Source: an uncultured Gammaproteobacteria bacterium
GTDB lineage: Bacteria; Patescibacteriota; Microgenomatia; Daviesbacterales; UBA10151
Assembly (NCBI GenBank): GCA_964489875.1
Contig: CAZAZW010000003.1
Coordinates: 13,585 to 77,584 of the forward strand
DNA: 64,000 nucleotides
Direction of reading: 5' to 3'
The position numbers and the translations under genes are program-made. Below, in pieces: positions 6,300 to 61,616 of this stretch (position 1 is its first letter; each line of letters begins with the position of its first letter). Under the pieces are notes generated by a model. It was not told the origin of the DNA. It ran no database searches and saw only the letters and a list, made by a program, of their open reading frames with translations.

Positions 6300-8580
<2,281 letters not shown>

Positions 8581-8581
<1 letters not shown>

Positions 8582-10119
8582 TACTTCTTGCCTCCTTTTC
8601 CGCTCTTACTAAACATCCCTACAAATTCTTTAGTCACTTTTTCCAACTGCTTAGCCATACCATCATCCAGTTCTTTTTTATCTGCCACCTCAGACATCAG
8701 CTTCTTTTCCCGAAGCTTTAAGTGGGCCACATATTTTTCCTCAAATTCTTTTACTCTCTCTACTTCCACATTATCCAAATATCCATTTGTGACAGCCCAA
8801 AGCACCACTACTTGTTCCGAGAGTGCAACAGGGGAGAAGGGAGGTTGTTTCAAAACTTCGGTGACTCTTTTACCTCTTTCAATCTGCGCCTTTGTGGCCG
8901 GATCTAAATCCGAAGAAAACTGGGCAAAAGCCTGCAAAGCCCTAAATTGTGCTAAATCCAAGCGCAATTTTCCTGCCACTGACTTCATGGCTTTAGTTTG
9001 CGCGGCACCGCCCACCCGGGAAACGGATAAACCAACATTAATAGCCGGCCTGATTCCGGCAAAAAAGAGATCCCCCTCCAAATATATTTGTCCGTCAGTA
9101 ATGGAGATAACATTTGTGGGAATATAAGCGGAAACATCACCGGCTTGTGTTTCAATAATCGGCAGGGCCGTCAGTGAACCACCGCCAAAATCTTTAGAGA
9201 GCTTTGCCGCCCGCTCCAGGAGTCTTGAATGAAGGTAAAAAACATCACCTGGATAAGCTTCACGGCCGGAGGGTCGGCGAAGAAGTAAAGAGACTTGCCT
9301 ATATGCCCAGGCATGCTTGGATAAATCATCATAAATAATCAAAGCGTCTTTCCCTTGATCCATAAAATATTCACCCATGGCGCAACCGGCGTATGGAGCT
9401 AAATATTGCATCGTAGCTGAGTCAGAAGCAGAAGCGGAAACTACGATGGTATGATCCATGGCTCCCAGCTCTTCCAGTCTGGCCACAATTTGCGCAACTT
9501 TAGATGTTTTTTGTCCGATTGCCACATAAATACAGATGACATCTTTTTGGTTAATAATAGTATCTATAGCGATGGTGGTTTTACCTGTACTTCTGTCACC
9601 AATAATCAACTCCCGCTGGCCACGACCAACTGGAATCATGGCATCAATGGCTTTAATACCGGTCTGCAGGGGAGTATTAACCCCTTGCCTGGTGATAACT
9701 CCGGGAGCAATCTTTTCCACCGGGTAGTGATCTTTGGCTTTAATAGGGCCCTTGCCGTCAATCGGACTTCCCAGCGCATCAACCACCCGGCCAACCAAAG
9801 CCTCGCCAACAGGCACCTGTAAAATTTGACCGGTAGTTTTAACTTCGTCGCCTTCTTTAACCTTGGTAAAATCTCCAAAGATGACAGCTCCCACATTGTA
9901 TTGCTCCAAATTTAGTGCTAACCCGTAAACTTCTTTTCCAAAATCCAACAATTCCGAATATTTAACATCTGATAACCCTTCGATCCTGGCTACCCCGTCA
10001 CCGATTTCAGTAACTATACCCATATTTTGTTTTTGGGCTTTTAATTTTAAACCTTTAATCTGGTTTTCTATATCAGCTATAAGCGAAGCTTGCGAGCTAC
10101 CGCTCTTTAAATCAGCCAC
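8581..10119 (-). CDS. atpA: F1 ATP synthase alpha subunit
   Basis: 512 aa. [18 protein letters not shown]. Confidence 0.97.
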
Positions 10120-10995: not shown

Positions 10996-11007
10996 AAGTG
11001 AAAGGGA

Positions 11008-11075
11008 ACAGGGTACAGTGAACAGGTTACAGTAATCGCTAGAAAACTGTCACCTGTAACCTAAAACCTGTAACC
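11008..11075 (-). other. Intercistronic imperfect stem-loop directly after the atpE stop, arms built of CTGTAAC-type heptamers
   Basis: acagggtacagtgaacaggttacagt ... actgtcacctgtaacctaaaacctgtaacc. The inner 12 bp pair with one mismatch. Confidence 0.6.
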
Positions 11076-11330
<255 letters not shown>

Positions 11331-25060: not shown

Positions 25061-27148
25061 ATGGATTTGAAAACTTCACTCTCAGGTCTTACCGGAATTG
25101 GACCCGGGCTTTCATACAGGCTCAAAAGGCTCAATTTAAATACTATTGAGGACTTAATTTACCACTTTCCTTTTAGGTATGATGACTTTTCTAATACCAC
25201 TTCAGCCCTGGATGCCAAGATAGGGGAGAATGTAACGCTGCAAGGGGAGATTTGGTCTATCCAGAATATTTTTACCAGGTCCAGAAAAATCATCACCAAA
25301 GCCGTATTTAATGACGGCACCTCACCAATAGAGTTAACTTGGTTCCACTCCTCTTGGCTGACTAAACAAATCCAGACAGGTGACAGACTACAGGTTTCCG
25401 GAAAAGTCAGCAAGTATAAAAATAAGCTTTCAATCATTGCCCCACGCTGGGAAAAACTCACCGAGACATTGACCCGCCGACCCACTGATATACCAACCAT
25501 CCATACTGGAAGGCTTGTGCCAATATACCCTGAAACAGAAGGCTTAAGCTCTAAATGGCTGCGGACAAAAATAGATAAACTACTGCCCCTGGTTATAGAT
25601 GAAATCAGCGATCCCTTGCCAAACCAAATCAGAAATGGGATGCTAACACTGACACAGGCCATTCAGCAAGTCCATTTTCCGGAAGATATACAGCAAGCAG
25701 AAAAGGCTAGGGAAAGATTGGGTTTTGACGAGCTGTTTTTTGTTTCGCTTGCTACCCAAAAAGCCCGCATGGAATGGAAGAAAAAACCCATATTGGAACC
25801 GTTAAAAATTAACCCAAAAGACGTCAAGGATTTTACTGATCATCTACCTTTTAAATTAACCGGCGCCCAAGAAAAGGTCTTAAAAGAAATCTTAGATGAT
25901 CTTAAAAAAGATCAGCCCATGAATAGGTTAGTACAAGGAGAGGTAGGCTCAGGGAAAACTGTAGTAGCCACCATTATTGCCTATTTAGTCCACAAAAATG
26001 GCTTGCGTACCTTATTTATGGCTCCGACGGAAATTCTGGCCTTCCAGCATTTTGAGACACTTTCCAAACTTCTCAAACCTTTTGGGGTAACAGTGGGAAT
26101 ATATACTGGGAGCAAGAAGAGTCAAGAGTCAAGAGTCAAGAGTCAAGGAAAAAAGAAATCTAGACTCTCGACTCTAGCGACTAGCCACTATTCTGACATC
26201 ATCATCGGCACCCATGCCCTGCTGTCCCAAAAGCTTGCCACTAACAATGTCGGGCTAGTCATTATCGACGAACAGCAACGCTTTGGAGTGGAACAAAGAA
26301 CTCTGCTTCGTTCCAAAGCCAAAATCCCGCATTTTCTGACTATGACCGCCACCCCGATACCCAGAACCGTAGCGCTAACTTTATATGGAGATTTGGATAT
26401 GTCGGTTATTGATGAAATGCCGGTGGGACGACAAAAAGTGAAAACATATCTTGTCCCGGAAAAAAAGAGGCAGGATTCTTATAAATTTATCGCCAAAAAA
26501 GTAGCAGCGGGGGATCAAGTCTATATCATTACGCCCTTAATCGAAGCTTCGGAAACTTTAATCACGGTGAAGGCCGCCAAAGTGGAATTTGAGAAACTTA
26601 AAAAAGTATTCCCCACTTTTAGCCTGGATTTACTCCACGGCAGGATGAAAGGAGCTGATAAAGATGCTGTTATCAAAAATTTCCGCTCCGGACAAACGGA
26701 CATCCTGGTTTCCACTTCCGTAGTTGAGGTGGGCATGGATAACCCCAATGCCACCATTATTGTAATTGAAGGGGCGGAGAGATTCGGCCTGGCCCAGCTT
26801 CATCAACTTCGAGGAAGAGTTGGCAGAGGAGAAAAGCAGTCTTATTGCCTGCTTTACACATCAAATTTCTCAAGTGACGAAAGCAGGCGCCTGAAATATC
26901 TGGAAACTACTTTTGACGGCTTGAAGCTCGCTGAGTTAGATTTAAAAATCCGCGGCAGCGGGGAGATCTTTGGAACTATGCAGTCAGGTAGGTTTGAATT
27001 TAAAATTGCCAGTTTCAGCAATATCACACTGCTTGAAAAAACCAGGCAAGCAGCCAAAGAATTATTGGTCATAGATCCCACCCTTGACAAACACCCGCTG
27101 CTCAAGGCAAAATTACAGGATATCGCATCAGAAGTGATGCCTGATTAA
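25061..27148 (+). CDS. recG: ATP-dependent DNA helicase RecG
   Basis: 695 aa. Wedge domain, GEVGSGKTVVA, DEQQRFGV, TATPIPRT, QLRGRVGRG. Confidence 0.93.
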   Translation: MDLKTSLSGLTGIGPGLSYRLKRLNLNTIEDLIYHFPFRYDDFSNTTSALDAKIGENVTLQGEIWSIQNIFTRSRKIITKAVFNDGTSPIELTWFHSSWLTKQIQTGDRLQVSGKVSKYKNKLSIIAPRWEKLTETLTRRPTDIPTIHTGRLVPIYPETEGLSSKWLRTKIDKLLPLVIDEISDPLPNQIRNGMLTLTQAIQQVHFPEDIQQAEKARERLGFDELFFVSLATQKARMEWKKKPILEPLKINPKDVKDFTDHLPFKLTGAQEKVLKEILDDLKKDQPMNRLVQGEVGSGKTVVATIIAYLVHKNGLRTLFMAPTEILAFQHFETLSKLLKPFGVTVGIYTGSKKSQESRVKSQGKKKSRLSTLATSHYSDIIIGTHALLSQKLATNNVGLVIIDEQQRFGVEQRTLLRSKAKIPHFLTMTATPIPRTVALTLYGDLDMSVIDEMPVGRQKVKTYLVPEKKRQDSYKFIAKKVAAGDQVYIITPLIEASETLITVKAAKVEFEKLKKVFPTFSLDLLHGRMKGADKDAVIKNFRSGQTDILVSTSVVEVGMDNPNATIIVIEGAERFGLAQLHQLRGRVGRGEKQSYCLLYTSNFSSDESRRLKYLETTFDGLKLAELDLKIRGSGEIFGTMQSGRFEFKIASFSNITLLEKTRQAAKELLVIDPTLDKHPLLKAKLQDIASEVMPD
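26119..26184. repeat. Heptamer-periodic hairpin (GAGTCAA x4 ... TAGACTC TCGACTC TAGCGAC) inside recG
   Basis: gagtcaagagtcaagagtcaagagtcaagg-aaaaaagaaatc-tagactctcgactctagcgactag. Confidence 0.8.
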
Positions 27149-29441: not shown

Positions 29442-30142
29442 TGAAATTTTCTATCATCACTTTATTTCCAGAAGTCTTTGAACCCATATTCAACTCTTCC
29501 ATACTGAAACGAGCCCAAAAAAAGGGTTTGGTTGAGTTTGAATTAATTAACCTGCGTGATTTTGGCAAAGGAAAACACAAGATAGTTGATGACAGGCCGT
29601 ATGGCGGCGGAGCAGGAATGGTGCTGAAAGCTGATATACTAACTAAAGCACTCAAAAGCATTGCCCCCAAACTACCAACTACCAGCTACCAACTACTTAC
29701 TATCTTAATGTCCGCTTCAGGACAACCCTACAAACAAACAAAGACAAAAGAATTTTCTAAACTAGATCATCTAATCATTGTATGTGGCCACTATGAGGGA
29801 GTAGATCAAAGATTTATTGACAAATATATTGACGGCGAAATCTCCATTGGGGATTATGTATTAACAGGTGGTGAAATCCCGGCCATGGTGATTGTTGATT
29901 CCATTACCAGGTTAATTCCAGGGGTTTTAGAAAAACCTGAGGCCACCGTTAATGAATCTTTTTCCGAAGGACTGCTGGAGTATCCCCAATACACCAGACC
30001 GGAAGAATTTGAAGGGAAAAAGGTCCCGGAAGTTTTATTGTCAGGAAATCACGCCGAAATAAACAAATGGCGCCTGGAAAAATCTCTGGGAAAGACTAAA
30101 AAGGTTAGGCCCGATTTACTAAAATCTACTCGAATGGATTAG
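29441..30142 (+). CDS. trmD: tRNA (guanine37-N1)-methyltransferase
   Basis: 233 aa. IITLFPEVF, DDRPYGGGAGMV, GHYEGVDQR, SIGDYVLTGGE. Confidence 0.92.
   Translation: MKFSIITLFPEVFEPIFNSSILKRAQKKGLVEFELINLRDFGKGKHKIVDDRPYGGGAGMVLKADILTKALKSIAPKLPTTSYQLLTILMSASGQPYKQTKTKEFSKLDHLIIVCGHYEGVDQRFIDKYIDGEISIGDYVLTGGEIPAMVIVDSITRLIPGVLEKPEATVNESFSEGLLEYPQYTRPEEFEGKKVPEVLLSGNHAEINKWRLEKSLGKTKKVRPDLLKSTRMD
29672..29696. repeat. Tandem heptamer CTACCAA/CTACCAG x3.5 inside trmD
   Basis: ctaccaactaccagctaccaactac, encoding LPTTSYQL. Confidence 0.6.
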
Positions 30143-34353: not shown

Positions 34354-34969
34354 TCCGTAAATTTGCTTCCGATGTGCCGGTTTGTACCTCAAAATTTAAG
34401 CCATTTTTCTGCTTTAGAGTTAGGGTAATCCTTACTTTAGCAGCATTCAGAGGAGTAACTTCAACCGGCGGATTAGCAGAATTAAAGTATTGAAAATTCA
34501 CGCTTTCAGCCATATTCGAAAGAATTCGATCCGCCAGCTTTCTTGAGCTTGCAGGATCCGGAAAAATCTTAAAGTGAAGTAGATTTTGATCCAGAAAGAA
34601 AACAAAGTAATCGAAAGTATTATCAATAATATTGCCTGAAGAATCTTCCGATAAAACCTTTAAAACAAGCTGACTGAGACCGCTAACATATGTAGATCCA
34701 CCGCCGGTGTAATTCTCGGCTACTGCGTTTGCCTCCTTAATACTGCTTCTAACTTGTAATAAAACATCATTGATATTTAAACCCTGCTGCACCTTTGAAG
34801 ATTGTTCCGTAAATAGGCCGGCGCTGTTTACCATGATCACAACCAGGAGCACTCCAGCCACCGTCGCTATCCCCATCGCTACTAGGACTTCAATAAGAGT
34901 TAAGCCCTTTCTGCGATTGACAATTTTTTTAATAATTTTCCATTTTCCATTGTCAATTTTCCATTTCAT
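34346..34969 (-). CDS. Prepilin-type (class III signal) minor pilin
   Basis: A 22-aa leader ending in RRKG, followed by LTLIEVLVAMGIA. Confidence 0.75.
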   Translation of the reverse strand: MKWKIDNGKWKIIKKIVNRRKGLTLIEVLVAMGIATVAGVLLVVIMVNSAGLFTEQSSKVQQGLNINDVLLQVRSSIKEANAVAENYTGGGSTYVSGLSQLVLKVLSEDSSGNIIDNTFDYFVFFLDQNLLHFKIFPDPASSRKLADRILSNMAESVNFQYFNSANPPVEVTPLNAAKVRITLTLKQKNGLNFEVQTGTSEANLRND

Positions 34970-35397
34970 TGATTAATCCCTCCTTCACCAATCATAGTTG
35001 TAAAAGAAACTGTTTGCAGCTTTGCATTATCTTGCCAAAGAACTGTTACCGTAACCACCTTAATATTTTCCCCCTGAGTACAGATTGCAGGGTCACAATC
35101 CGTAACTTCCACTGTTCCGCTACCTTGGGGAATCAAATTTAAACGCGTGTCAGAAATAGGAGAATTATCATTTACCAAGTTGCTATAATTTATTGCCCTT
35201 TTGTCCTCAATCTGTTTAACAGCAATCTCTCTTGCCAAACTCTCATGTCTGCTTTTGCCAATCAGCATCAAGGCATTAGGAATGTTTGCAACAAGAAACA
35301 CCACTGATCCGATAATGGCTACAACTAGCAGGGCTTCGATCAATGAAAAACCACTTTGGCTCCTTAATTTTGACTTTTGACATTTTACTTTTGACAT
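34966..35397 (-). CDS. Prepilin-type minor pilin
   Basis: ...SQSG followed by FSLIEALLVVAIIG. Confidence 0.75.
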   Translation of the reverse strand: MSKVKCQKSKLRSQSGFSLIEALLVVAIIGSVVFLVANIPNALMLIGKSRHESLAREIAVKQIEDKRAINYSNLVNDNSPISDTRLNLIPQGSGTVEVTDCDPAICTQGENIKVVTVTVLWQDNAKLQTVSFTTMIGEGGINQ

Positions 35398-35398
35398 T

Positions 35399-36361
35399 TT
35401 ACTTATTTATGTCGCCGGCAGAAAAAATGGCATAGTCAAAATAGGGGGGGACTACGTTCTCAAACTGGCAGACTTGGATCTTTCTTTGTGTCTGGCCGGA
35501 AGTACCTGTGGATACTAATATCTTAGCTTGAGTCGGTATACAACCACTTGTATTATCATTTTCTCTGCAGACGCTTCCGGCGGCAGCTCGTACTGCAAAT
35601 GGTTGACTTTTTGAGCTATACAAAAGCCTGGCACGAAGCAGTATTAAAGTTGAAGGCGAAGAAGGCAAGGATCCTCCCGGATCACTTGAGCTTCCAAGCG
35701 TATACTGACATTGATATTCCGGTAACTCAGGGATGCCGCCATTGCAAAGCACTTTTTCAAAGCCATTATTTGTAGCCCTGGTAGCCGATAGATGGTCAAG
35801 ATACCATTTGCGGCTTCGGTACTTTGGTGTTGATCCATCAACTAAATCCGTAGGATCTGTTCCATAATAAACTATGGTTACTTCTAAAGCAGCCTTGTCA
35901 TTGTTGTCAGAAGAATCTCCCCAATAAACATCAAGACTGGTCTGTTTATAGCAATAATCAGTAGCGCTACACGTTGGCAGATTTAGCTTTGGATCTGCCA
36001 GCCAAATTTGGGCTATATCTTCTTTAGCAAACTCGGATCCGCCGAGAGAGCATTTGATAGGGTCCTGGCGCCGAGGGGTCTCAAACGAAGCAGGAATTGC
36101 CGGTATTGCCTCATTTTTATTTACCTCCGCGCTGGAATTGTTATCCGGAAAAGAGACGGTTATTAAATTGTTATTTCTTGGTTCGCTTAATGCTTTCTCT
36201 ATTCCCGCCTCAGCTGCTGAGAAAGCTCTGGAAGATTGCTCGACTTTTGAAGAGGTTGATATATCAGACAGTGAACGTTGAATAACTGATAAACCAATCG
36301 CCAAAGCCACAGTCATTACTAAAATTAATATTAAAATCACTTGGCCTTTTTGGCTTCTCAT
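35399..36361 (-). CDS. PilX_N-like pilus protein
   Basis: MRSQKGQVILILILVMTVALAIGL, with no Glu at position +5. 320 aa. Confidence 0.6.
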   Translation of the reverse strand: MRSQKGQVILILILVMTVALAIGLSVIQRSLSDISTSSKVEQSSRAFSAAEAGIEKALSEPRNNNLITVSFPDNNSSAEVNKNEAIPAIPASFETPRRQDPIKCSLGGSEFAKEDIAQIWLADPKLNLPTCSATDYCYKQTSLDVYWGDSSDNNDKAALEVTIVYYGTDPTDLVDGSTPKYRSRKWYLDHLSATRATNNGFEKVLCNGGIPELPEYQCQYTLGSSSDPGGSLPSSPSTLILLRARLLYSSKSQPFAVRAAAGSVCRENDNTSGCIPTQAKILVSTGTSGQTQRKIQVCQFENVVPPYFDYAIFSAGDINK

Positions 36362-37603: not shown

Positions 37604-38120
37604 AAATTCTACCTCCTTGTTCAATCTTTAAAGATCTTGGATTTGGTATTATGCGGTTTCGTAAAGTAATTATTATACTAGTACAATTTGGCATCTCACG
37701 ATACATATAATTAAGAAATTCTATTTTGCCACTAAGCGGAGCAAAAGCTATTGAAAATATTTGACCGCTGTCGGGGCAATTAAGCGAAGGATCAACCTGC
37801 ATTGTAATATTGGAGCCTAATTTTGAGGATTTTTTGAGCCAGATGTCAGACGAATTTTCCGTACATTGGAGATTAAAAGTTGTGGCATCAACAAATGTAA
37901 CCATCCATCTGGCACCATATCCCGTATCACACTTTACATTAGTGGTAGCATTTGTTTGGGCCTGACGGAGCAAACTTTGGATATCCAAAACAGCACTTTT
38001 TAATTTTTGGTCTTCACCAAAGGATTTATAGTTAGCCAGGGTAAAAACCCCTACTATAGCCATAATGGCCAGCACCACCAGGAGTTCAACCAAGGTAAAT
38101 CCACGGGCAGAAATCTTCAT
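37593..38120 (-). CDS. Prepilin-type pilin (FimT/GspH-like)
   Basis: MKISARG followed by FTLVELLVVLAIMAIVG. Confidence 0.8.
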   Translation of the reverse strand: MKISARGFTLVELLVVLAIMAIVGVFTLANYKSFGEDQKLKSAVLDIQSLLRQAQTNATTNVKCDTGYGARWMVTFVDATTFNLQCTENSSDIWLKKSSKLGSNITMQVDPSLNCPDSGQIFSIAFAPLSGKIEFLNYMYREMPNCTSIIITLRNRIIPNPRSLKIEQGGRIYGR

Positions 38121-38130
38121 CTAATTTGAT

Positions 38131-38158
38131 TGTAACCTGTAAACTGTAACCTGTAAAC
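38131..38158. repeat. Tandem 14-mer TGTAACCTGTAAAC x2 (heptamer-periodic)
   Basis: Exact direct repeat at 38131-38144 and 38145-38158. It resembles the arm of the atpE hairpin. Confidence 0.8.
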
Positions 38159-38162
38159 TGTT

Positions 38163-45962: not shown

Positions 45963-46597
45963 ATGATTGCAAGGCTTTTAATTTCACCTGATTTGGAAAA
46001 AAGGGTAGAGGAGATCAAAAATATTTTAGCTTCCCACTTGACGAGTGGGAATACGAATCACCCGGATTTGCTATACATCAAAGATGGAGAAAAACTTGGG
46101 ATTGCAGAGGCCAGAAAGATAAAAGAACATTTTTCCTTAAAACCTTACTGCGCCAAAGGCAGGGTGGTAGTTTTAGAAGATGCATCGCCGTTAACCATTG
46201 AGGCTCAAAATGCCCTGTTAAAAACTTTAGAAGAATTACCTGAGGAGGCAACTTTAATCTTAGGAGCTACTTCAGATGCCAATTTTTTGCCTACAATCCT
46301 ATCGCGCTGCCGGGTTATCCATCTGGAAAGCGCAGTTTCTCATCCTAGTTCAAAGACAGACTTCACTCAGGACATCACAAAACTCCTTTCAGCTGATATG
46401 GAAGAAAGGTTTGGGTATATTGAAGGATTGAAAAATAAAGAAGGATTTTTAAAGGCATTGTTATTTTATTTCCATCAGGATGTATATAAAAACAAGGACT
46501 TTTTAGCAAAACTTTTACAAGCAGAAGAGTGGGCCAAACATAATGTCAATATTCGGGCAATTTTGGAATATTTAATGCTGGAAATGCCAAAGAAGAA

Positions 46598-46616
<19 letters not shown>
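45963..46616 (+). CDS. holB: DNA polymerase III delta-prime-like subunit, short form
   Basis: 217 aa. VVVLEDASPLTIEAQNALLKTLEELPEEATLILGA and ILSRCRVI. Confidence 0.75.
46031..46051. repeat. 21-nt hairpin TTCCCACT-TGACG-AGTGGGAA inside holB (the exact reverse complement occurs at 56541..56561)
   Basis: ttcccacttgacgagtgggaa, encoding SHLTSGN. Confidence 0.85.
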
Positions 46617-48758
<2,142 letters not shown>

Positions 48759-49374: not shown

Positions 49375-50856
49375 ATGGCTACAAAAGTACATTTTTTGGG
49401 TATTGGAGGCTCAGGCGCTTCAGGGGCAGCGGCTATTACGGAGGCTCAAGGCTTTGAGATCACCGGCTGTGACCTGGAACCCAACAATGAATTTACCACT
49501 ATTTTCAAACCAGACCAACTCCTCGTTGGACATTCCCCAGATCACATATTCCGTCATTGCGATCCGGCGAAGCCGGAGAAGCAATCTAGTTTGGAAGATA
49601 ACCCTACCAAGATTGCTTCGTCGCCTACGGCTCCTCGCAATGACGATGAGAATAACCATAACGATAGAACAATAGATATTCTGGCAGTCACTCCGGCCAT
49701 TTTTTCTTTAGACCCCAGTAACCCTGAACTTTTGGCAGCCAAAGAAAAAGGCATACCAGTAATTACCTGGCAACAATTTGTTGGTCAGTATCTGACCAAA
49801 GACAAATTTGTCATTGCCATTTGCGGCACCCACGGCAAAACCACTACCACAGCCATTATTGGCCAGTTATTAGAAGATGCCGGGATGGACCCGACAGTAC
49901 TTCTTGGAGCCATCGTCCCCAAATGGGGCACAAACTATCGCATACCTCGACAAAAAGTTCACGATCGTGAATATTTTGTCATAGAGGCAGACGAGTTTAA
50001 TGATAACTTTCTACCTACCAAACCTGATATTGCAGTAGTCACTAATATCGAAATGGACCACCCGGAATATTTTAAAGACTTTGAGACGGTTAAAGATAGC
50101 TTTAAAAGGTTTTTACTACAAACCAAACAAGCTGTGGTAGCTAACATGACTGACCCAGGAGTAGCTGAAGTTATGAAAGTAGTGATGAAAACGCCACATC
50201 AAATTTCCTCCGGCCGTGGGATATTTGAAACATATTTAGATTATTCCAGGAATGAACTGGGCATAAACTTACAGGTCCCCGGGGAATTTAATCGGTTAAA
50301 TGCCAAAGCTGCCATGGCGGTAGGGCTCTTGCTGGGAATAAAACCAGACACTATTAAAAAAAGTCTGGCAAACTTTACAGGAGCAAGCAGAAGGTTTGAA
50401 TATATCGGAGAATTTAATGGTGCAAAAGTTTATTCTGATTTTGGCCACCATCCGACGGAAATCGAAAAAACTATGGAAGCAGTTAGAGAAAAGTTTCCTA
50501 AGGAACGAATTTTACTGGTTTACCAACCACATATGTTTTCCAGAACCAAGGCTCTATTTAATGATTTTGTAAAAGTATTCCAAGATATTGCGGCTGATAA
50601 GCAAAGCTTGAAATTCTCGCAACGCTCGAATTTTAAAACTTTTATCCTGGATATTTACGCATCAAGGGAAGTGGATACTGGCTTAGTAACCAGCAAACAG
50701 CTTGTAGAAACCATTAACAAACCATCCGTATCATACCTGGGAGCTGTCCCAGGTTCCCTGGAAAAAATTAAGCCGGAAATTAAATCAGGGGATATTGTCT
50801 TTTTTATGAGCGCCGGAGATACTGATAAATTAGCTAAAGAACTAGTGGATTCCTAA
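49375..50856 (+). CDS. murC: UDP-N-acetylmuramate--L-alanine ligase
   Basis: VHFLGIGGSGASGAA, ICGTHGKTTTTAIIG, and a Mur ligase C-terminal domain. Confidence 0.9.
   Translation: MATKVHFLGIGGSGASGAAAITEAQGFEITGCDLEPNNEFTTIFKPDQLLVGHSPDHIFRHCDPAKPEKQSSLEDNPTKIASSPTAPRNDDENNHNDRTIDILAVTPAIFSLDPSNPELLAAKEKGIPVITWQQFVGQYLTKDKFVIAICGTHGKTTTTAIIGQLLEDAGMDPTVLLGAIVPKWGTNYRIPRQKVHDREYFVIEADEFNDNFLPTKPDIAVVTNIEMDHPEYFKDFETVKDSFKRFLLQTKQAVVANMTDPGVAEVMKVVMKTPHQISSGRGIFETYLDYSRNELGINLQVPGEFNRLNAKAAMAVGLLLGIKPDTIKKSLANFTGASRRFEYIGEFNGAKVYSDFGHHPTEIEKTMEAVREKFPKERILLVYQPHMFSRTKALFNDFVKVFQDIAADKQSLKFSQRSNFKTFILDIYASREVDTGLVTSKQLVETINKPSVSYLGAVPGSLEKIKPEIKSGDIVFFMSAGDTDKLAKELVDS
49553..49644. repeat. 92-bp GTCATTGCGA...TCGCAATGAC element inside murC
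   Basis: Perfect 10-bp terminal inverted repeat, inner agcaatct/agattgct inverted repeat, and a ccgg-cgaag-ccgg hairpin. Confidence 0.8.
50211..50232. repeat. 22-nt exact repeat inside murC (other copy at 6125..6146)
   Basis: cggccgtgggatatttgaaaca, encoding SGRGIFET. Confidence 0.8.
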
Positions 50857-59060: not shown

Positions 59061-61616
59061 ATGTCAAACATCGGCAAAATACAACCAGCCCCAATTATTG
59101 AAGAGATGCAAAAGTCCTATTTGGACTATGCCATGTCTGTCATTGTTTCAAGAGCATTACCTGATGTCCGTGACGGCCTGAAACCTGTCCAGCGAAGAAT
59201 TATTTATGCCATGCACCAACAGGGTTTGCACCACAGTTCCCGTTTTCAAAAATCAGCTGCCGTAGTCGGAGAAGTTATGAAAAACCTCCACCCGCACGGT
59301 GATGCCCCTATATATGAGGCCATGGTCAGAATGGCCCAGAATTTTTCCATGAGATATATGTTGGTGGACGGACAAGGAAACTTTGGATCAATTGACGGAG
59401 ACTCTCCGGCTGCGATGCGTTATACCGAAGCCAGGCTATCGGCAATTTCCGAGGAACTCCTTCGTGATATCAGCAAAAACACAGTTAATTTTATTGATAA
59501 TTATTCCGGTACCACCCAAGAACCAATACTTCTGCCTTCTGTCATTCCCAATCTACTCCTAAACGGCGCCTCCGGTATTGCCGTTGGCATGGCCACCCAG
59601 ATCCCGCCTCATAATTTAGGGGAGGTCTGTGACGCGCTGGTCTACATGATAGAACACCCAATGAAAGAGTCAAGAGTCAAGAGTCAAGAGTCAAGTGACG
59701 AAAAAGAAGATACTAGACTCTCGACTCTAGCGACTAGCGACTCTTTTCAATCCGAAGCTACTGTTGAAGACCTTATCAAATTTGTCAAAGGCCCGGATTT
59801 TCCCACGGGTGCCTCTATTTATGACCAAACCGAAATACTGGCAGCTTATGCTACCGGCAAAGGCCGGATCGTCATGCGAGCCAAAGCCGAAATTGATGAA
59901 ACCCCGGCCGGAAAAATGCAAATCATTGTTTCAGAGCTACCATATCAAGTAAATAAAGCTACTCTAATTGCCAGAATTGCCGAGCTGGTTAAGGACAAAA
60001 AGTTAGAGGGTATCGCGGATCTCAGGGATGAATCAGATCGCAAACAAATGGTCCGAATCGTTTTTGACCTAAAAAGGGATGCCAAACCGCAAGCAATTTT
60101 AAATAACCTCTACAAACATACAGCTATGCAGTCGGTTTTCAACGTTAACTTAGTGGCGCTAGTTGACGGCGTACCACATCTCCTAACCTTAAAACATATC
60201 CTGGAGGAGTTTATTCATCATCGGCAAGTTGTTGTCAGGAAACGCTCGGAATTTGAACTGGCAGAAGCCAAAGCTAGAGAACACATCTTAGAAGGCTTAA
60301 AGATTGCAGTTGATAACATTGATGCTGTCATCGAAACAATCAAGAAGTCAAAAGATGCAGATGCAGCCAAAACCAATTTGATGACCAAATTTAAACTATC
60401 CGAACTCCAGGCTCTGGCAATTTTGGATATGCAGCTTCGAAGGTTAGCCGCACTGGAGCGGCAAAAAATTGAAGATGAGTTAAAGATGGTCCGGGAAACA
60501 ATCGCCTATTTGGAAGACTTATTAGCTCATCCTGAGAAAATCTTAAAAGTCATCAAAGATGAACTGACAAGAATAAAAGAAAAATACGGAGACGACAGGA
60601 GAACCCGGGTTTATAAACAAAAAATAGGGGAGTTTAACGAAGAAGATTTAGTGCCGAATGAGGTCACCATCGTTACTATTACCGAAGGCGGTTACATCAA
60701 GCGCCAATCTCCAATGTCTTTTCGGACCCAACAGCGGGGCGGTAAAGGGGTCATGGGTATCGCCACTAAAGAAACCGATGCAGTCTCTCATATTTTCTAT
60801 ACTCAAACCCACGACAGCATTCTCTTTTTTACCGATAAAGGTCGAGTTTTTCAAATTAAAGTTTGGGAAATTCCGGAAACTCAAAGAGCAGCTAAAGGAC
60901 AGGCTATCGTTAATTTAATCAATGTGGAGCAAGGAGAAAAGATTACCGCTGTTTTAACCACTCGCCAAAAAGGTGAGAGCGCCCGATATTTCTTTATGTG
61001 TACCAAAAAAGGCACTGTCAAAAAAACTGCCGTTTCAGAATATGCTAATATCAGAAAGAATGGTTTGGTAGCTATCAAATTAGATACAGGTGATGAATTG
61101 GGGTGGGTATCGGCTACCTCCGGCAAGGATGATTTAATCATCGTTTCAAGAGCCGGCAAATCCATACGTTTTTCAGAGACACAAGTTAAACCCACCCACC
61201 GGGATACTTCCGGGGTAAGAGGTATCAGGCTCGGCAAAGATGACGGGGTTGTATCACTCAATCTTGTACAAAAAGATGCCCAACTTTTGGTGATTATGGA
61301 AAATGGTTTGGGTAAAAAAACGGCCTTTTCTGCCTGGAGCAGACAGGGCAGGGGAGGACAGGGGGTAAAAGCTGCCCAGGTAACAGCCAAAACCGGACCG
61401 ATTGTGACAGCACAAGCAGTGGATGGCAAAATGGATACTTTGGTTCTCACTTCCACCAAAGGACAACTCATTAAAATGGATCTTAAACAGGTACCTATTT
61501 TGCAACGGCAGACTCAAGGTGTAATCTTGATGAGAGTCAGACCCGGTGAGAAGGTGGCAGCTGCCACAGTGGTGGCGTCTAAAGAAAAAACTGAACAATC
61601 AGAACCTAAAGCATGA
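59061..61616 (+). CDS. gyrA: DNA gyrase subunit A
   Basis: 851 aa. [26 protein letters not shown], and C-terminal beta-pinwheel repeats. Confidence 0.96.
59667..59743. repeat. Heptamer-periodic hairpin (GAGTCAA x4 ... TAGACTC TCGACTC TAGCGAC TAGCGAC) inside gyrA
   Basis: Both arms are near-identical to the recG copy. Confidence 0.8.

Follow-up and report, generated by a model that had tools for sequence, protein, structure and literature searches.

The window, i.e. the whole 64-kb stretch of DNA analysed here, comes from a Candidatus Daviesbacteria (CPR) genome and contains a recG gene, whose product was confidently matched to known RecG structures (phmmer E-values: 1GM5, 2e-147; 9WM0, 6e-127) and which is immediately followed by rnc, encoding RNase III. 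A heptamer-armed hairpin is embedded in the recG reading frame, with the following parts:

25061–27148, + strand: recG ORF (695 aa), host of the element (ORF list; phmmer match to 1GM5)
26119–26146, + strand: left arm, (GAGTCAA)x4, free of stops in all three frames
26147–26160, + strand: A-rich loop GGAAAAAAGAAATC, coding for GKKK; the divergence between species falls here and not in the arms
26161–26188, + strand: right arm, TAGACTC TCGACTC TAGCGAC TAGCCAC; its single open frame is the frame used

The sequence-only reading had described this segment as a translated hairpin with one mismatch per heptamer, placed where RecG proteins normally have a short linker. These points hold: the exact arms are present, the segment lies inside an intact 695-aa ORF, and the residues it encodes (24 in the in-frame translation) are not aligned to RecG structures, at a position where the orthologues vary. 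The proposed start of the element was also right, but the proposed end, 26184, falls within the last heptamer and the true end is 26188. The regularity of the mismatches is largely explained by stop-codon avoidance. Of the six frames only one is open across the element, and it is the one used in all coding copies examined (recG, gyrA and radA); the genic left arm is built of GAGTCAA, stop-free in every frame unlike GAGTCTA, and the right-arm heptamers are individually edited, e.g. TCGACTC stands in place of TAGACTC, which would give an in-frame TAG.

The same hairpin had also been proposed to occur within gyrA (59667..59743) and, as a terminator-like structure, at the end of holB. The features in question are:

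59061–61616, + strand: gyrA ORF (851 aa), host of the second copy (ORF list and structure match)
59661–59753, + strand: full 93-nt gyrA insert, delimited by comparison with the empty orthologous allele (CAC CCT/GAG GCT in the relative L116)
59667–59694, 59695–59713 and 59714–59743, + strand: left arm, loop and right arm of the gyrA insert
46595–46665, + strand: variant element in the holB–gyrB spacer, GAATCAA GAGTCTA GTGACTA GAGTCTA, loop, TTGACTC TAGACTC TAGCGAC TAGTCAC TA
46669–46704, + strand: 11-codon mini-ORF, beginning 9 nt past the holB–gyrB element, its TAA overlapping the gyrB ATG (TAATG)

For gyrA the proposal is borne out, with near-identical arms: the left arm and TAGACTCTCGACTCTAGCGACTAG are identical to those of recG, the loop is different, and the outer inverted termini of the insert are TGAAAGAGTC and GACTCTTTTCA. 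At the end of holB a related hairpin is indeed present, but it is a diverged family member rather than the same hairpin. Nor does it resemble a terminator, since it is followed by CACTAATTATG without a T/U run and the terminator scan, which looked for intrinsic terminators, made no call; no sigma-70 promoter match was found on the + strand at this copy. The holB stop codon (TAG, 46614–46616) lies within the left arm, and the holB–gyrB spacer consists entirely of the element, from that stop codon to an ATG 9 nt past the right end. In the relative L084 the orthologous copy (473–545) is nearly identical, and so is the mini-ORF before gyrB (1 difference in the spacer alignment). RNA folding z-scores of the recG, gyrA and holB copies are −3.6, −5.0 and −3.2, respectively.

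The hairpin in recG belongs to a dispersed palindromic repeat family, which we named the GAGTC family. Its elements are quasi-palindromes of about 65–93 nt made of 7-base units, in which the underlying unit is CTAG plus 3 nt (GAGTCTA / GTGACTA / GTCGCTA in one arm, TAGACTC / TAGTCAC / TAGCGAC in the other) and whose arms are able to pair in several registers; they end in TGAAAGAGTC / GACTCTTTTCA or ...CTAGTCACTA and possess no GTAG or CGTC head. A check for further copies of the GAGTCAA repeat found them both in the window (gyrA and the holB variant), which holds 3 copies in total, and in the loci of relatives. The 12-mer GAGTCAAGAGTC, with at most 1 mismatch, has 11 matches in the window against 0.1 expected, all within clustered copies. 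Across Daviesbacteria loci the family occupies at least 12 distinct genomic sites, in the genes recG, gyrA, radA, trmD, fmt and that of a GHMP kinase as well as in short spacers between co-directional genes, and the same 24–31-nt arm sequences are found at unrelated loci, both within one genome and between genomes. One gyrA copy holds a nested palindrome, and in L001 and L117 hairpin cores have been lost by deletion between CTAG repeats, with an exact 51-nt loss between CTAGNG repeats. Rfam covariance models gave no match at gathering thresholds in the whole window. The CGTC-type palindromes found elsewhere in the window (7936–8012 and 49552–49645) are of a different family.

Heptamer periodicity extends beyond the GAGTC family. 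The window contains 4 period-7 tracts versus none in shuffled sequences, one tract of period 8 and none of any other period. Per 100 kb, period-7 tracts number 13.4 in Daviesbacteria, 1.2 in other CPR and 0.9 in non-CPR bacteria (approximately 10-fold enrichment), and tandem tracts with periods 4–6 and 8–11 number 0 in Daviesbacteria. Tract lengths are clustered (32 of 57 at 29–33 nt, maximum 38, about 4.4 units), and 40 of the 57 tracts (~70%) lie within open frames of at least 150 codons. There are many distinct heptamer units with a common architecture, several unrelated heptamer families per genome, identical arrays recurring at unrelated loci, and solo arrays of about 31 nt that have no inverted partner. 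In the window the following were identified:

11003–11076, + strand: hairpin with heptamer units of a different family (AGGGAAC/AGGTTAC ... CTGTAAC), lying between atpF and an unannotated gap (presumably atpE); folding z −5.2
29670–29696, + strand: solo array (AACTACC)x4, translated inside trmD
34935–34966, − strand: array (GGAAAAT on the coding strand) that codes for an extended prepilin leader peptide
35367–35404, − strand: array (GTCAAAA/GTAAAAT on the coding strand) over the start codon and leader of a prepilin-like gene
38131–38161, − strand: array (TGTAACC/TGTAAAC) filling the spacer of two prepilin-like genes, 10 nt upstream of the ATG at 38120–38118

In other species the recG loop is filled by the heptamers of the 11003–11076 hairpin, which also occur in trmD of L004; at the site of the trmD array, L004, L009, L010 and L086 have different heptamer arrays or hairpins. 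A scan of a viral collection with (GAGTCAA)3 returned 8 heterogeneous matches with no bearing on the GAGTC family: one ORF was hit in 3 identical copies, L109 contributed a heptamer hairpin of a different type, and the remainder were long mixed heptamer arrays on GC-rich contigs.

Comparison of orthologues revealed that the recG hairpin belongs to a lineage-wide pattern, in which the same protein loops are used again and again by many palindromes, heptameric and non-heptameric. The recG and gyrA ORFs are intact, and empty and filled orthologues of both were identified at the protein and the DNA level. Some species have no insert in the RecG and GyrA loops that in others are occupied by at least 6 unrelated palindrome families; non-heptameric palindromes of the CGTC type are found at the same hot spots as the heptamer elements. 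State changes on the trees amount to dozens of gains, losses or replacements at these two loops. Among 113 GyrA orthologues 83 have at least 7 extra aa at one site, and in the orthologue alignment of RecG the length variation is dominated by the linker site, where every filled recG linker folds into a strong hairpin (−24 to −47 kcal/mol), compared with −4 to −11 for the empty ones. Many orthologues are empty or carry an unrelated palindrome, and therefore no specific sequence is required for RecG or GyrA. The insert residues are unaligned to the structures of either protein. In RecG the inserted ~23–31 residues are predicted to be an unstructured loop, modeled with low confidence, that links two strands of the first RecA-like domain: in the AlphaFold model, whose mean pLDDT is only 70.5, residues 353–375 are modeled as coil with pLDDT <50, flanked by strands 345–354 and 380–383. 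The radA copy in L104 carries a loop of the recG type, which weakens the argument from orthologous loops for strict vertical descent.

While the loops diverge, the arms hardly change: they differ at 1/58, 2/57 and 2/63 positions in comparisons where fourfold sites differ by 46%, 66% and 71%, respectively, and no other stretch of recG is as conserved at the nucleotide level as these 58 nt. Judged from these sequence comparisons, such conservation is far too high for decaying junk. A covariation test identified compensatory base changes in 0 of 14 consensus-fold pairs (12-row alignment, in which the L104 row is misplaced and aligned badly); this result is uninformative with respect to structure, because the pairs never vary.

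The non-coding copies exhibit a fixed orientation with respect to genes. Of 18 copies, 16 have their asymmetric right end 5–19 nt (mode 9) before an ATG, and 13 of these 16 ATGs open ORFs of 104–1332 aa. The stop codon of the upstream ORF falls within the element or at its edge at 8 of 14 sites. Intergenic copies form complete stop-hairpin-start spacers. The absence of a Shine-Dalgarno sequence after the element was considered as a possible special feature and rejected, as an SD-like motif is present in only 24% of the called genes of the relatives (Fisher p = 0.68).

We regard it as probable, though far from certain, that the GAGTC family is a REP/RPE-like selfish or neutral palindromic repeat, specific to Daviesbacteria, non-autonomous and tolerated as a disordered protein loop. 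Copies would spread via a single-stranded hairpin intermediate, by transposition or conversion, and selection would then retain only two sorts of copy, those in permissive loops that are in frame and free of stops and those in spacers. The latter may be harmless as gene junctions, as they offer stops in every frame and an adjacent ATG. The near-invariance of the arms could be kept by exchange among copies or by sequence-specific selection. Several observations count against this explanation: the arms are much more conserved than decaying junk should be, the repeated use of one loop per protein by unrelated families is more extreme than random insertion followed by selection would obviously predict, and a simple MITE model leaves the solo 31-nt arrays and the length cap unexplained. 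The machinery is a further point against it: no Y1_Tnp gene was found in the window by tblastn, and a Y1/RAYT transposase was rejected as the mobiliser, given that the Y1_Tnp genes of L004, L006 and L010 are flanked by hairpins of the CCCAC..GTGGG type or by a 38-nt direct repeat and not by heptamer repeats. There is no consistent target-site duplication (CAAT flanks only 2 of 4 gyrA copies), and none of the examined loci showed a parent IS whose ends match; the GAGTC elements do have inverted termini.

Alternatively, the repeat might be a functional nucleic-acid element under purifying selection, either an RNA structure (a processing site for RNase III or another enzyme, a translation or transcription pause, or stop-restart coupling in spacers) or a protein-bound DNA site, recruited into DNA-maintenance genes and gene junctions. 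The arms frozen at saturated synonymous divergence beside a drifting loop are what such an element would display, as are the fixed orientation of the non-coding copies with the right end before an ATG, the upstream stops in or at the edge of the element, the presence of recG, gyrA, radA and holB among the hosts and the position of rnc immediately 3' of recG. Nevertheless, we consider this alternative unlikely, if still worth serious attention: the sequence itself is frozen, with no compensatory change in any of the 14 pairs, which is not expected of selection on structure only, and many orthologues manage with no insert or with an unrelated palindrome at the site. Moreover, trmD, fmt and the kinase gene are not DNA genes, no Rfam match, terminator T-run or + strand sigma-70 match was found, and starts devoid of a Shine-Dalgarno sequence are normal in this lineage.

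Or perhaps Daviesbacteria possess an as yet undescribed kind of very small mobile DNA? Such an entity would be a size-capped heptamer array of ~31 nt, usually an inverted pair, which precisely enters and leaves a small number of fixed landing pads and replaces the palindromes residing there, with its arms actively kept constant and its spacer copies serving as a portable stop-hairpin-start junction. The landing pads would comprise one loop each of RecG, GyrA, RadA and TrmD, the leaders of prepilins and sites immediately 5' of start codons, and the constancy of the arms might be due to templated conversion or to a sequence-specific protein. We put this forward as a speculative idea that has a small chance of being right.

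Origin in situ without mobility, i.e. through slippage of replication in 7-nt steps and subsequent fold-back or template-switch copying, in a lineage whose polymerase favours heptamer steps, appears improbable. It would agree with the enrichment of period 7 alone and in Daviesbacteria only, with the many heptamer units sharing one architecture and with arms that pair in several registers, and a bias of bacterial SSRs toward heptamers has been published, together with a hypothesis that attributes it to the polymerase footprint (PMC4692102). However, it does not account for the same 24–31-nt arms at unrelated loci within and across genomes, for the CGTC-type non-heptameric palindromes in the same hot spots, or for tracts capped at ~31 nt with no slippage-like tail. 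A motif akin to DNA uptake sequences (DUS), spread by biased uptake and recombination, would account for the conservation of the arms across species, for the inverted pairs at gene ends and for the presence of recG, gyrA, radA and holB among the hosts, as the DUS of Neisseria are likewise biased toward genome-maintenance genes. This is very improbable, as the repeat occurs only in clusters or hairpins (about 3 loci per 64 kb) rather than as frequent single copies, GAGTC/GANTC outside the elements has an observed/expected ratio of 0.95 in the window with no single short word over-represented there, and one genome harbors several unrelated heptamer families. A cluster of GANTC (CcrM/HinfI-type) sites was also considered and rejected: arm variants retain GANTC, yet GANTC is neither avoided nor enriched elsewhere. 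Finally, although the contig is metagenome-assembled and repeats can mis-assemble, the collapsed simple repeat that the sequence-only reading had kept in mind, or a chimeric one, is effectively refuted, as the ORFs are intact and in frame and at least 8 independent assemblies of different projects show the identical architecture at the orthologous positions, with the in-frame element at the orthologous recG and gyrA sites in NCBI, JGI, ENA and Logan assemblies.

In-frame palindromic repeats have been discussed mainly for Rickettsia and a few REP-rich bacteria; the Rickettsia palindromic elements (RPE), reportedly described by Ogata and colleagues in 2000, are said to lie in frame in protein-coding genes. 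Intragenic palindromic repeats encoding 20–30 aa have been found, many of them in genes of DNA synthesis and repair (Di Nocera et al. 2013, PMC3733652). Like the GAGTC family, RPE and intragenic REPs are short dispersed palindromes that add ~20–30 residues in frame to tolerated loops, are frequent in DNA synthesis and repair genes, have copies between co-directional genes and lack a dedicated transposase nearby. The GAGTC family differs from them in the absence of a GTAG or CGTC head, in arms that are tandem heptamers (CTAG+3) rather than a unique stem and near-invariant rather than decaying, in its CPR host, and in the re-use of the same loop by many unrelated families. It resembles the REP/REPIN-RAYT system in being composed of hairpin repeats with a fixed orientation to genes, and the related genomes that carry them have genes for Y1 (HUH) transposases (PF01797) as well. 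However, the Y1_Tnp genes of the relatives are flanked by different, non-heptameric hairpins and none is present in the window, and the GAGTC element is 65–93 nt long with periodic mismatches, whereas a REP is a GC-rich stem of 20–40 nt.

The insertions of the MITE type (Correia elements of Neisseria, Nezha of cyanobacteria; reviewed in PMC10969869) are small, non-autonomous inverted repeats that can supply stop or start signals and alter the expression of neighbors. GAGTC elements are likewise small and inverted-repeat, and MITEs occasionally lie in frame within genes, but for the GAGTC element neither a consistent target-site duplication nor, in the loci examined, a matching parent IS was found, and short tandem units make up its entire length as a quasi-palindrome. 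Tandem heptamers (STRR) were reportedly described in cyanobacteria by Mazel in 1990, and Elhai and colleagues are said to have reported in 2008 the small dispersed repeats (SDR) of Nostoc, which are very small, mobile, nested in one another and associated with heptamer-repeat hairpins; SDRs are unique sequences of 21–27 nt and not the heptamer arrays themselves. Heptameric tandem repeats in Xanthomonas and a heptamer bias of SSRs in bacteria have been documented (Rehm et al. 2015, PMC4692102). Heptameric STRRs and SSRs share with the Daviesbacteria tracts a lineage-specific excess of 7-nt repeats, several units per genome and, sometimes, inverted arrangement with stem-loop potential. They are intergenic and of variable copy number, in contrast to tracts that lie to ~70% in long open frames, are size-capped and occur as identical arrays at unrelated loci.

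Two features go beyond this known picture: the hot spot of one loop per protein that is refilled by unrelated palindromes, and the arms that remain unchanged beside saturated synonymous sites. Either feature alone would point to a new mechanism of targeting or maintenance, and both are directly testable with existing metagenomes. A heptamer-armed family in a CPR lineage with genomes of ~1 Mb extends in-frame palindromic repeats to the most streamlined bacteria and offers a source for the lineage-specific loop expansions of CPR proteins. The inserts also introduce spurious low-complexity peptides and length variation into gyrA and recG, which are CPR phylogenomic markers, and should therefore be masked. 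As a minor observation, there is a hint of genome-specific variants shared by paralogous copies: in one genome the first heptamer has TA in recG as well as in gyrA, the two genes of the window both have AA there, and GAGTCTG occurs in two copies of L097.

The heptamer hairpin in recG belongs to a family of translated heptamer-array palindromes specific to Daviesbacteria (the GAGTC family), of which it is one copy, and its interpretation should be widened beyond a single hairpin in recG. The translated hairpin proposed by the sequence-only reading is real and was described correctly. It is translated as a 24-residue segment within a 695-aa host ORF (25061–27148), which matches RecG structures (E-values 2e-147 and 6e-127). 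The closest named orthologues of both RecG and GyrA belong to Candidatus Daviesbacteria (Patescibacteria/CPR).

Copies of the GAGTC family in the window
26119–26146, plus strand: left arm of the recG element, four perfect GAGTCAA units
26147–26160, plus strand: loop of the recG element, 14 nt, A-rich
26161–26188, plus strand: right arm of the recG element, TAGACTC TCGACTC TAGCGAC TAGCCAC
59661–59753, plus strand: insert of exactly 93 nt in gyrA (59061–61616), with a left arm identical to that of recG, the same 24 nt TAGACTCTCGACTCTAGCGACTAG and a different loop (19 nt)
46595–46665: diverged copy straddling the holB stop codon

The second copy announced for gyrA is thus borne out, while the terminator-like structure at the end of holB proved to be a family member, but a diverged one that has neither a T-run terminator nor a plus-strand sigma-70 match. 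The three hairpins (recG, gyrA, holB) exhibit folding z-scores of -3.6, -5.0 and -3.2, and the 12-mer GAGTCAAGAGTC occurs 11 times with at most one mismatch (0.1 expected). The window contains four tandem tracts of period 7, one of period 8 and none of any other period; shuffled sequences contain none. No Rfam family matches the element.

Empty RecG proteins of Daviesbacteria exhibit a 20-aa segment, IYTGSKKxxKDxxVIVGTHA, where the window protein has 40 aa. In the AlphaFold model (44 orthologues, mean pLDDT 70.5), residues 353–375 are predicted with pLDDT below 50 and no secondary structure, between strands 345–354 and 380–383. The gyrA insert lies between the codons of the empty allele at the relative's locus L116 (CAC CCT/GAG GCT), with the bounds TGAAAGAGTC / GACTCTTTTCA and no consistent target duplication.

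A search for further copies identified in-frame elements at the orthologous recG site of four other species (loci L004, L088, L086 and L087; a variant in L010), gyrA-site copies in L084, L085, L097/L100 and L092, a holB-gyrB junction copy in L084, a copy in radA (L104), solo (GAGTCAA)4 arrays in trmD (L086), a GHMP kinase gene (L103) and fmt (L107), and copies in many spacers. An assembly artefact is ruled out by copies in independent NCBI, JGI, ENA and Logan assemblies. In L092 (minus strand, ~2418–2516) a GC-rich palindrome, CCGCCGAAGGCGAGGCTCGCCAAAGGCGG, is nested in the left arm of the gyrA copy, which is still in frame. A perfect 72-nt hairpin, (GAGTCAA)n-loop-(TTTTGAC)n, is found in L109, an IMG/VR contig classed as viral (9211–9270; GC 41%), with a right arm unlike that of the Daviesbacteria family.

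Period-7 tracts reach 13.4 per 100 kb in Daviesbacteria DNA around recG (142 kb), compared with 1.2 in other CPR (162 kb) and 0.9 in non-CPR (1.05 Mb), and no other period is enriched in these sets. A wider census (419 kb) revealed 57 tracts, 32 of them 29–33 nt long (maximum 38) and 25 with an inverted partner; 40 fall within open frames of 150 codons or more, and about 16 of these within the first 35 codons, mostly at pilin-like gene starts among the inspected cases, with Pfam confirmation for the window's three only.

The arms of the element are nearly invariant between hosts whose fourfold sites have strongly diverged.

Divergence at fourfold sites and in the arms, window versus relatives
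recG, L004: fourfold sites 46% different (whole gene 21%); arms 1/58 (loop 4/11)
recG, L088: fourfold sites 66% different; arms 2/57
recG, L086: fourfold sites 71% different; left arm 0/33, right arm 2/30
gyrA, L084: fourfold sites 51% different; right arm 0/26
gyrA, L085: fourfold sites 48% different; right arm 0/26

This pattern excludes neutral decay of the arms; the conserved block starts and ends sharply at the element boundaries, and compensatory changes are absent because the arm pairs do not vary. The constancy may result from sequence-specific selection, conversion among copies or repeated re-insertion; variants that paralogous copies share inside one genome, and loop types common to different genes, hint at exchange among copies. 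It is one of two properties that merit follow-up.

In the non-coding copies the underlying unit is CTAG plus three bases, and the left-arm variants GAGTCTA, GTGACTA and GTCGCTA are exact complements of the right-arm units TAGACTC, TAGTCAC and TAGCGAC. A heptamer array cycles through the three reading frames every 21 nt: (GAGTCAA)n is stop-free in every frame, and each frame of (GAGTCTA)n, (TTGACTC)n and (TAGACTC)n has a stop. Of the right arm as it stands, a single frame is open, the same in recG, gyrA and radA; the whole element is open in one of six, the frame used in recG. In TCGACTC the C occupies the position where A would create an in-frame TAG; TTGACTC, TAGACTC and GAGTCTA are retained in intergenic copies. 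The mismatch in each heptamer, correctly noted from the sequence, is thus in large part a trace left by selection to keep the frame open.

The RecG linker is empty in about half of 120 orthologues, and filled in the others by clearly different sequences: the GAGTC, GGGGAAA/CTTCACC, GTAAC (heptamers as at window 11003–11076) and IKIK-type families, and two non-heptameric CGTC/TGTC-headed palindromes, translated VIASEAKQS...ARND or VIPS..., as at window 49552–49645 and 7936–8012. Folding energies are -24 to -47 kcal/mol for every filled linker and -4 to -11 for empty ones. In alignments of all orthologues, insertions of at least 7 aa concentrate at residues 353–380 of RecG (minor site 134–139) and at one internal site of GyrA (83/113 orthologues). 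Neighbour-joining trees of the remaining columns require at least 27 empty/filled changes for RecG and 18 for GyrA, with 41 and 31 family-level changes (shuffled labels: 48.6 and 42.7). Even allowing for the imperfection of single-protein trees, one site must have undergone many independent gains, losses or replacements. L001 equals L002 less exactly 51 nt, deleted between two CTAGNG repeats, and L117 is a gyrA derivative of comparable kind; hairpin cores are thus subject to deletion. TrmD has its own single hot spot after ...KALKS, occupied by a different array or hairpin in each of five genomes (window 29670–29696; L004 14620–14682; L009 8517–8590; L010 14680–14740; L086 8945–8970). The other property that merits follow-up is these hot spots, each confined to one loop, with their rapid turnover among several families.

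The trmD occupant of the window is a solo arm, (AACTACC)x4, whose inverted partner is absent. The two non-heptameric window palindromes lie inside conserved genes, atpG (7676–8581, minus strand; 7936–8012, TGTCATTCCCGCGCAGGCGGGAATC...) and a Mur ligase gene (49375–50853; 49552–49645, CGTCATTGCGATCCGGCGAAGCC...), where the N-domain match is stretched by ~45 residues; their families occupy the recG and gyrA hot spots of other Daviesbacteria (VIASEAKQS...PRND, VIPS...). Seven GyrA orthologues (P0174, P0187, P0190, P0194, P0196, P0214 and P0218; 1263–1346 aa) possess an extra ~450-aa insertion with the intein/LAGLIDADG domains PF14528 and PF14890; therefore, gyrA hosts inteins as well as palindromic repeats in Daviesbacteria.

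Non-coding copies, oriented by their asymmetric end CTAGCGACTAG, are followed within 5–19 nt by an ATG in 16 of 18 cases, most commonly at 9 nt (TCACTAAYT-ATG); 13 of the 16 start ORFs of 104–1332 aa, representing nine or more different genes. Of 14 distinct sites, 8 have a co-directional ORF upstream that ends within the element or at its margin, usually at its own TAG or TGA; the element then makes up the whole spacer. In the window the holB stop lies in the left arm, and an 11-codon mini-ORF begins 9 nt past the right end, its TAA overlapping the gyrB ATG, an arrangement nearly identical in L084. Starts without SD are commonplace in this lineage.

A GANTC-based explanation found no support. 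The best-supported reading is that of a REP/RPE-like selfish palindromic repeat, which would spread via hairpin DNA and persist only at harmless sites. Intragenic REPs are described in this way; they encode 20–30 aa and often lie in genes for DNA synthesis and repair (PMC3733652). In its heptamer architecture the element resembles heptameric repeats that are lineage-specific in Nostoc and Xanthomonas (PMC4692102). Y1 transposases were considered as the mobiliser, but no link was found: their genes occur widely in relatives, flanked by hairpins other than the heptamer repeat, and none lies within the 64-kb window. The Y1_Tnp loci (PF01797, RAYT/IS200-like, ~222 aa) are L004/L002 1–603 and 15188–15856, L006 6503–7168, L010 5946–6362 and L117 4218–4508; one sits between trmD and the pil cluster with a 38-nt direct repeat on both flanks, and others between CCCAC..GTGGG hairpins.

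Heptamer arrays also cover the start codon, leader peptide or 5' spacer of type IV prepilin-like genes (window, minus-strand genes: 34935–34966, 35367–35404, 38131–38161; relatives: L006 11940–12001, L007 15684, L008 11750, L009 13723), lengthening the leader ahead of the G↓F(T/S)L(I/V)E cleavage motif. Adding or removing a single unit would shift the frame, since 7 is not divisible by 3, and these arrays are therefore candidates for a phase-variation device. Three species (L004 4572–4602, L006 255–285, L009 2686–2716) share a conserved 31-nt (ATTAGAA/ATTAAAA) array in which only the position of the ATTAAAA unit is permuted; it lies ~10 nt ahead of the ATG of a small membrane-protein-like gene, the same one in each. 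Outside the elements CTAG is depleted about two-fold (158 observed, 303 expected), and a noticeable fraction of the CTAG sites in total therefore falls within the elements. Over nearly all 64 kb the GC skew is negative, despite most large genes (recG, gyrB, gyrA) lying on the plus strand, and the AT skew is mostly positive.
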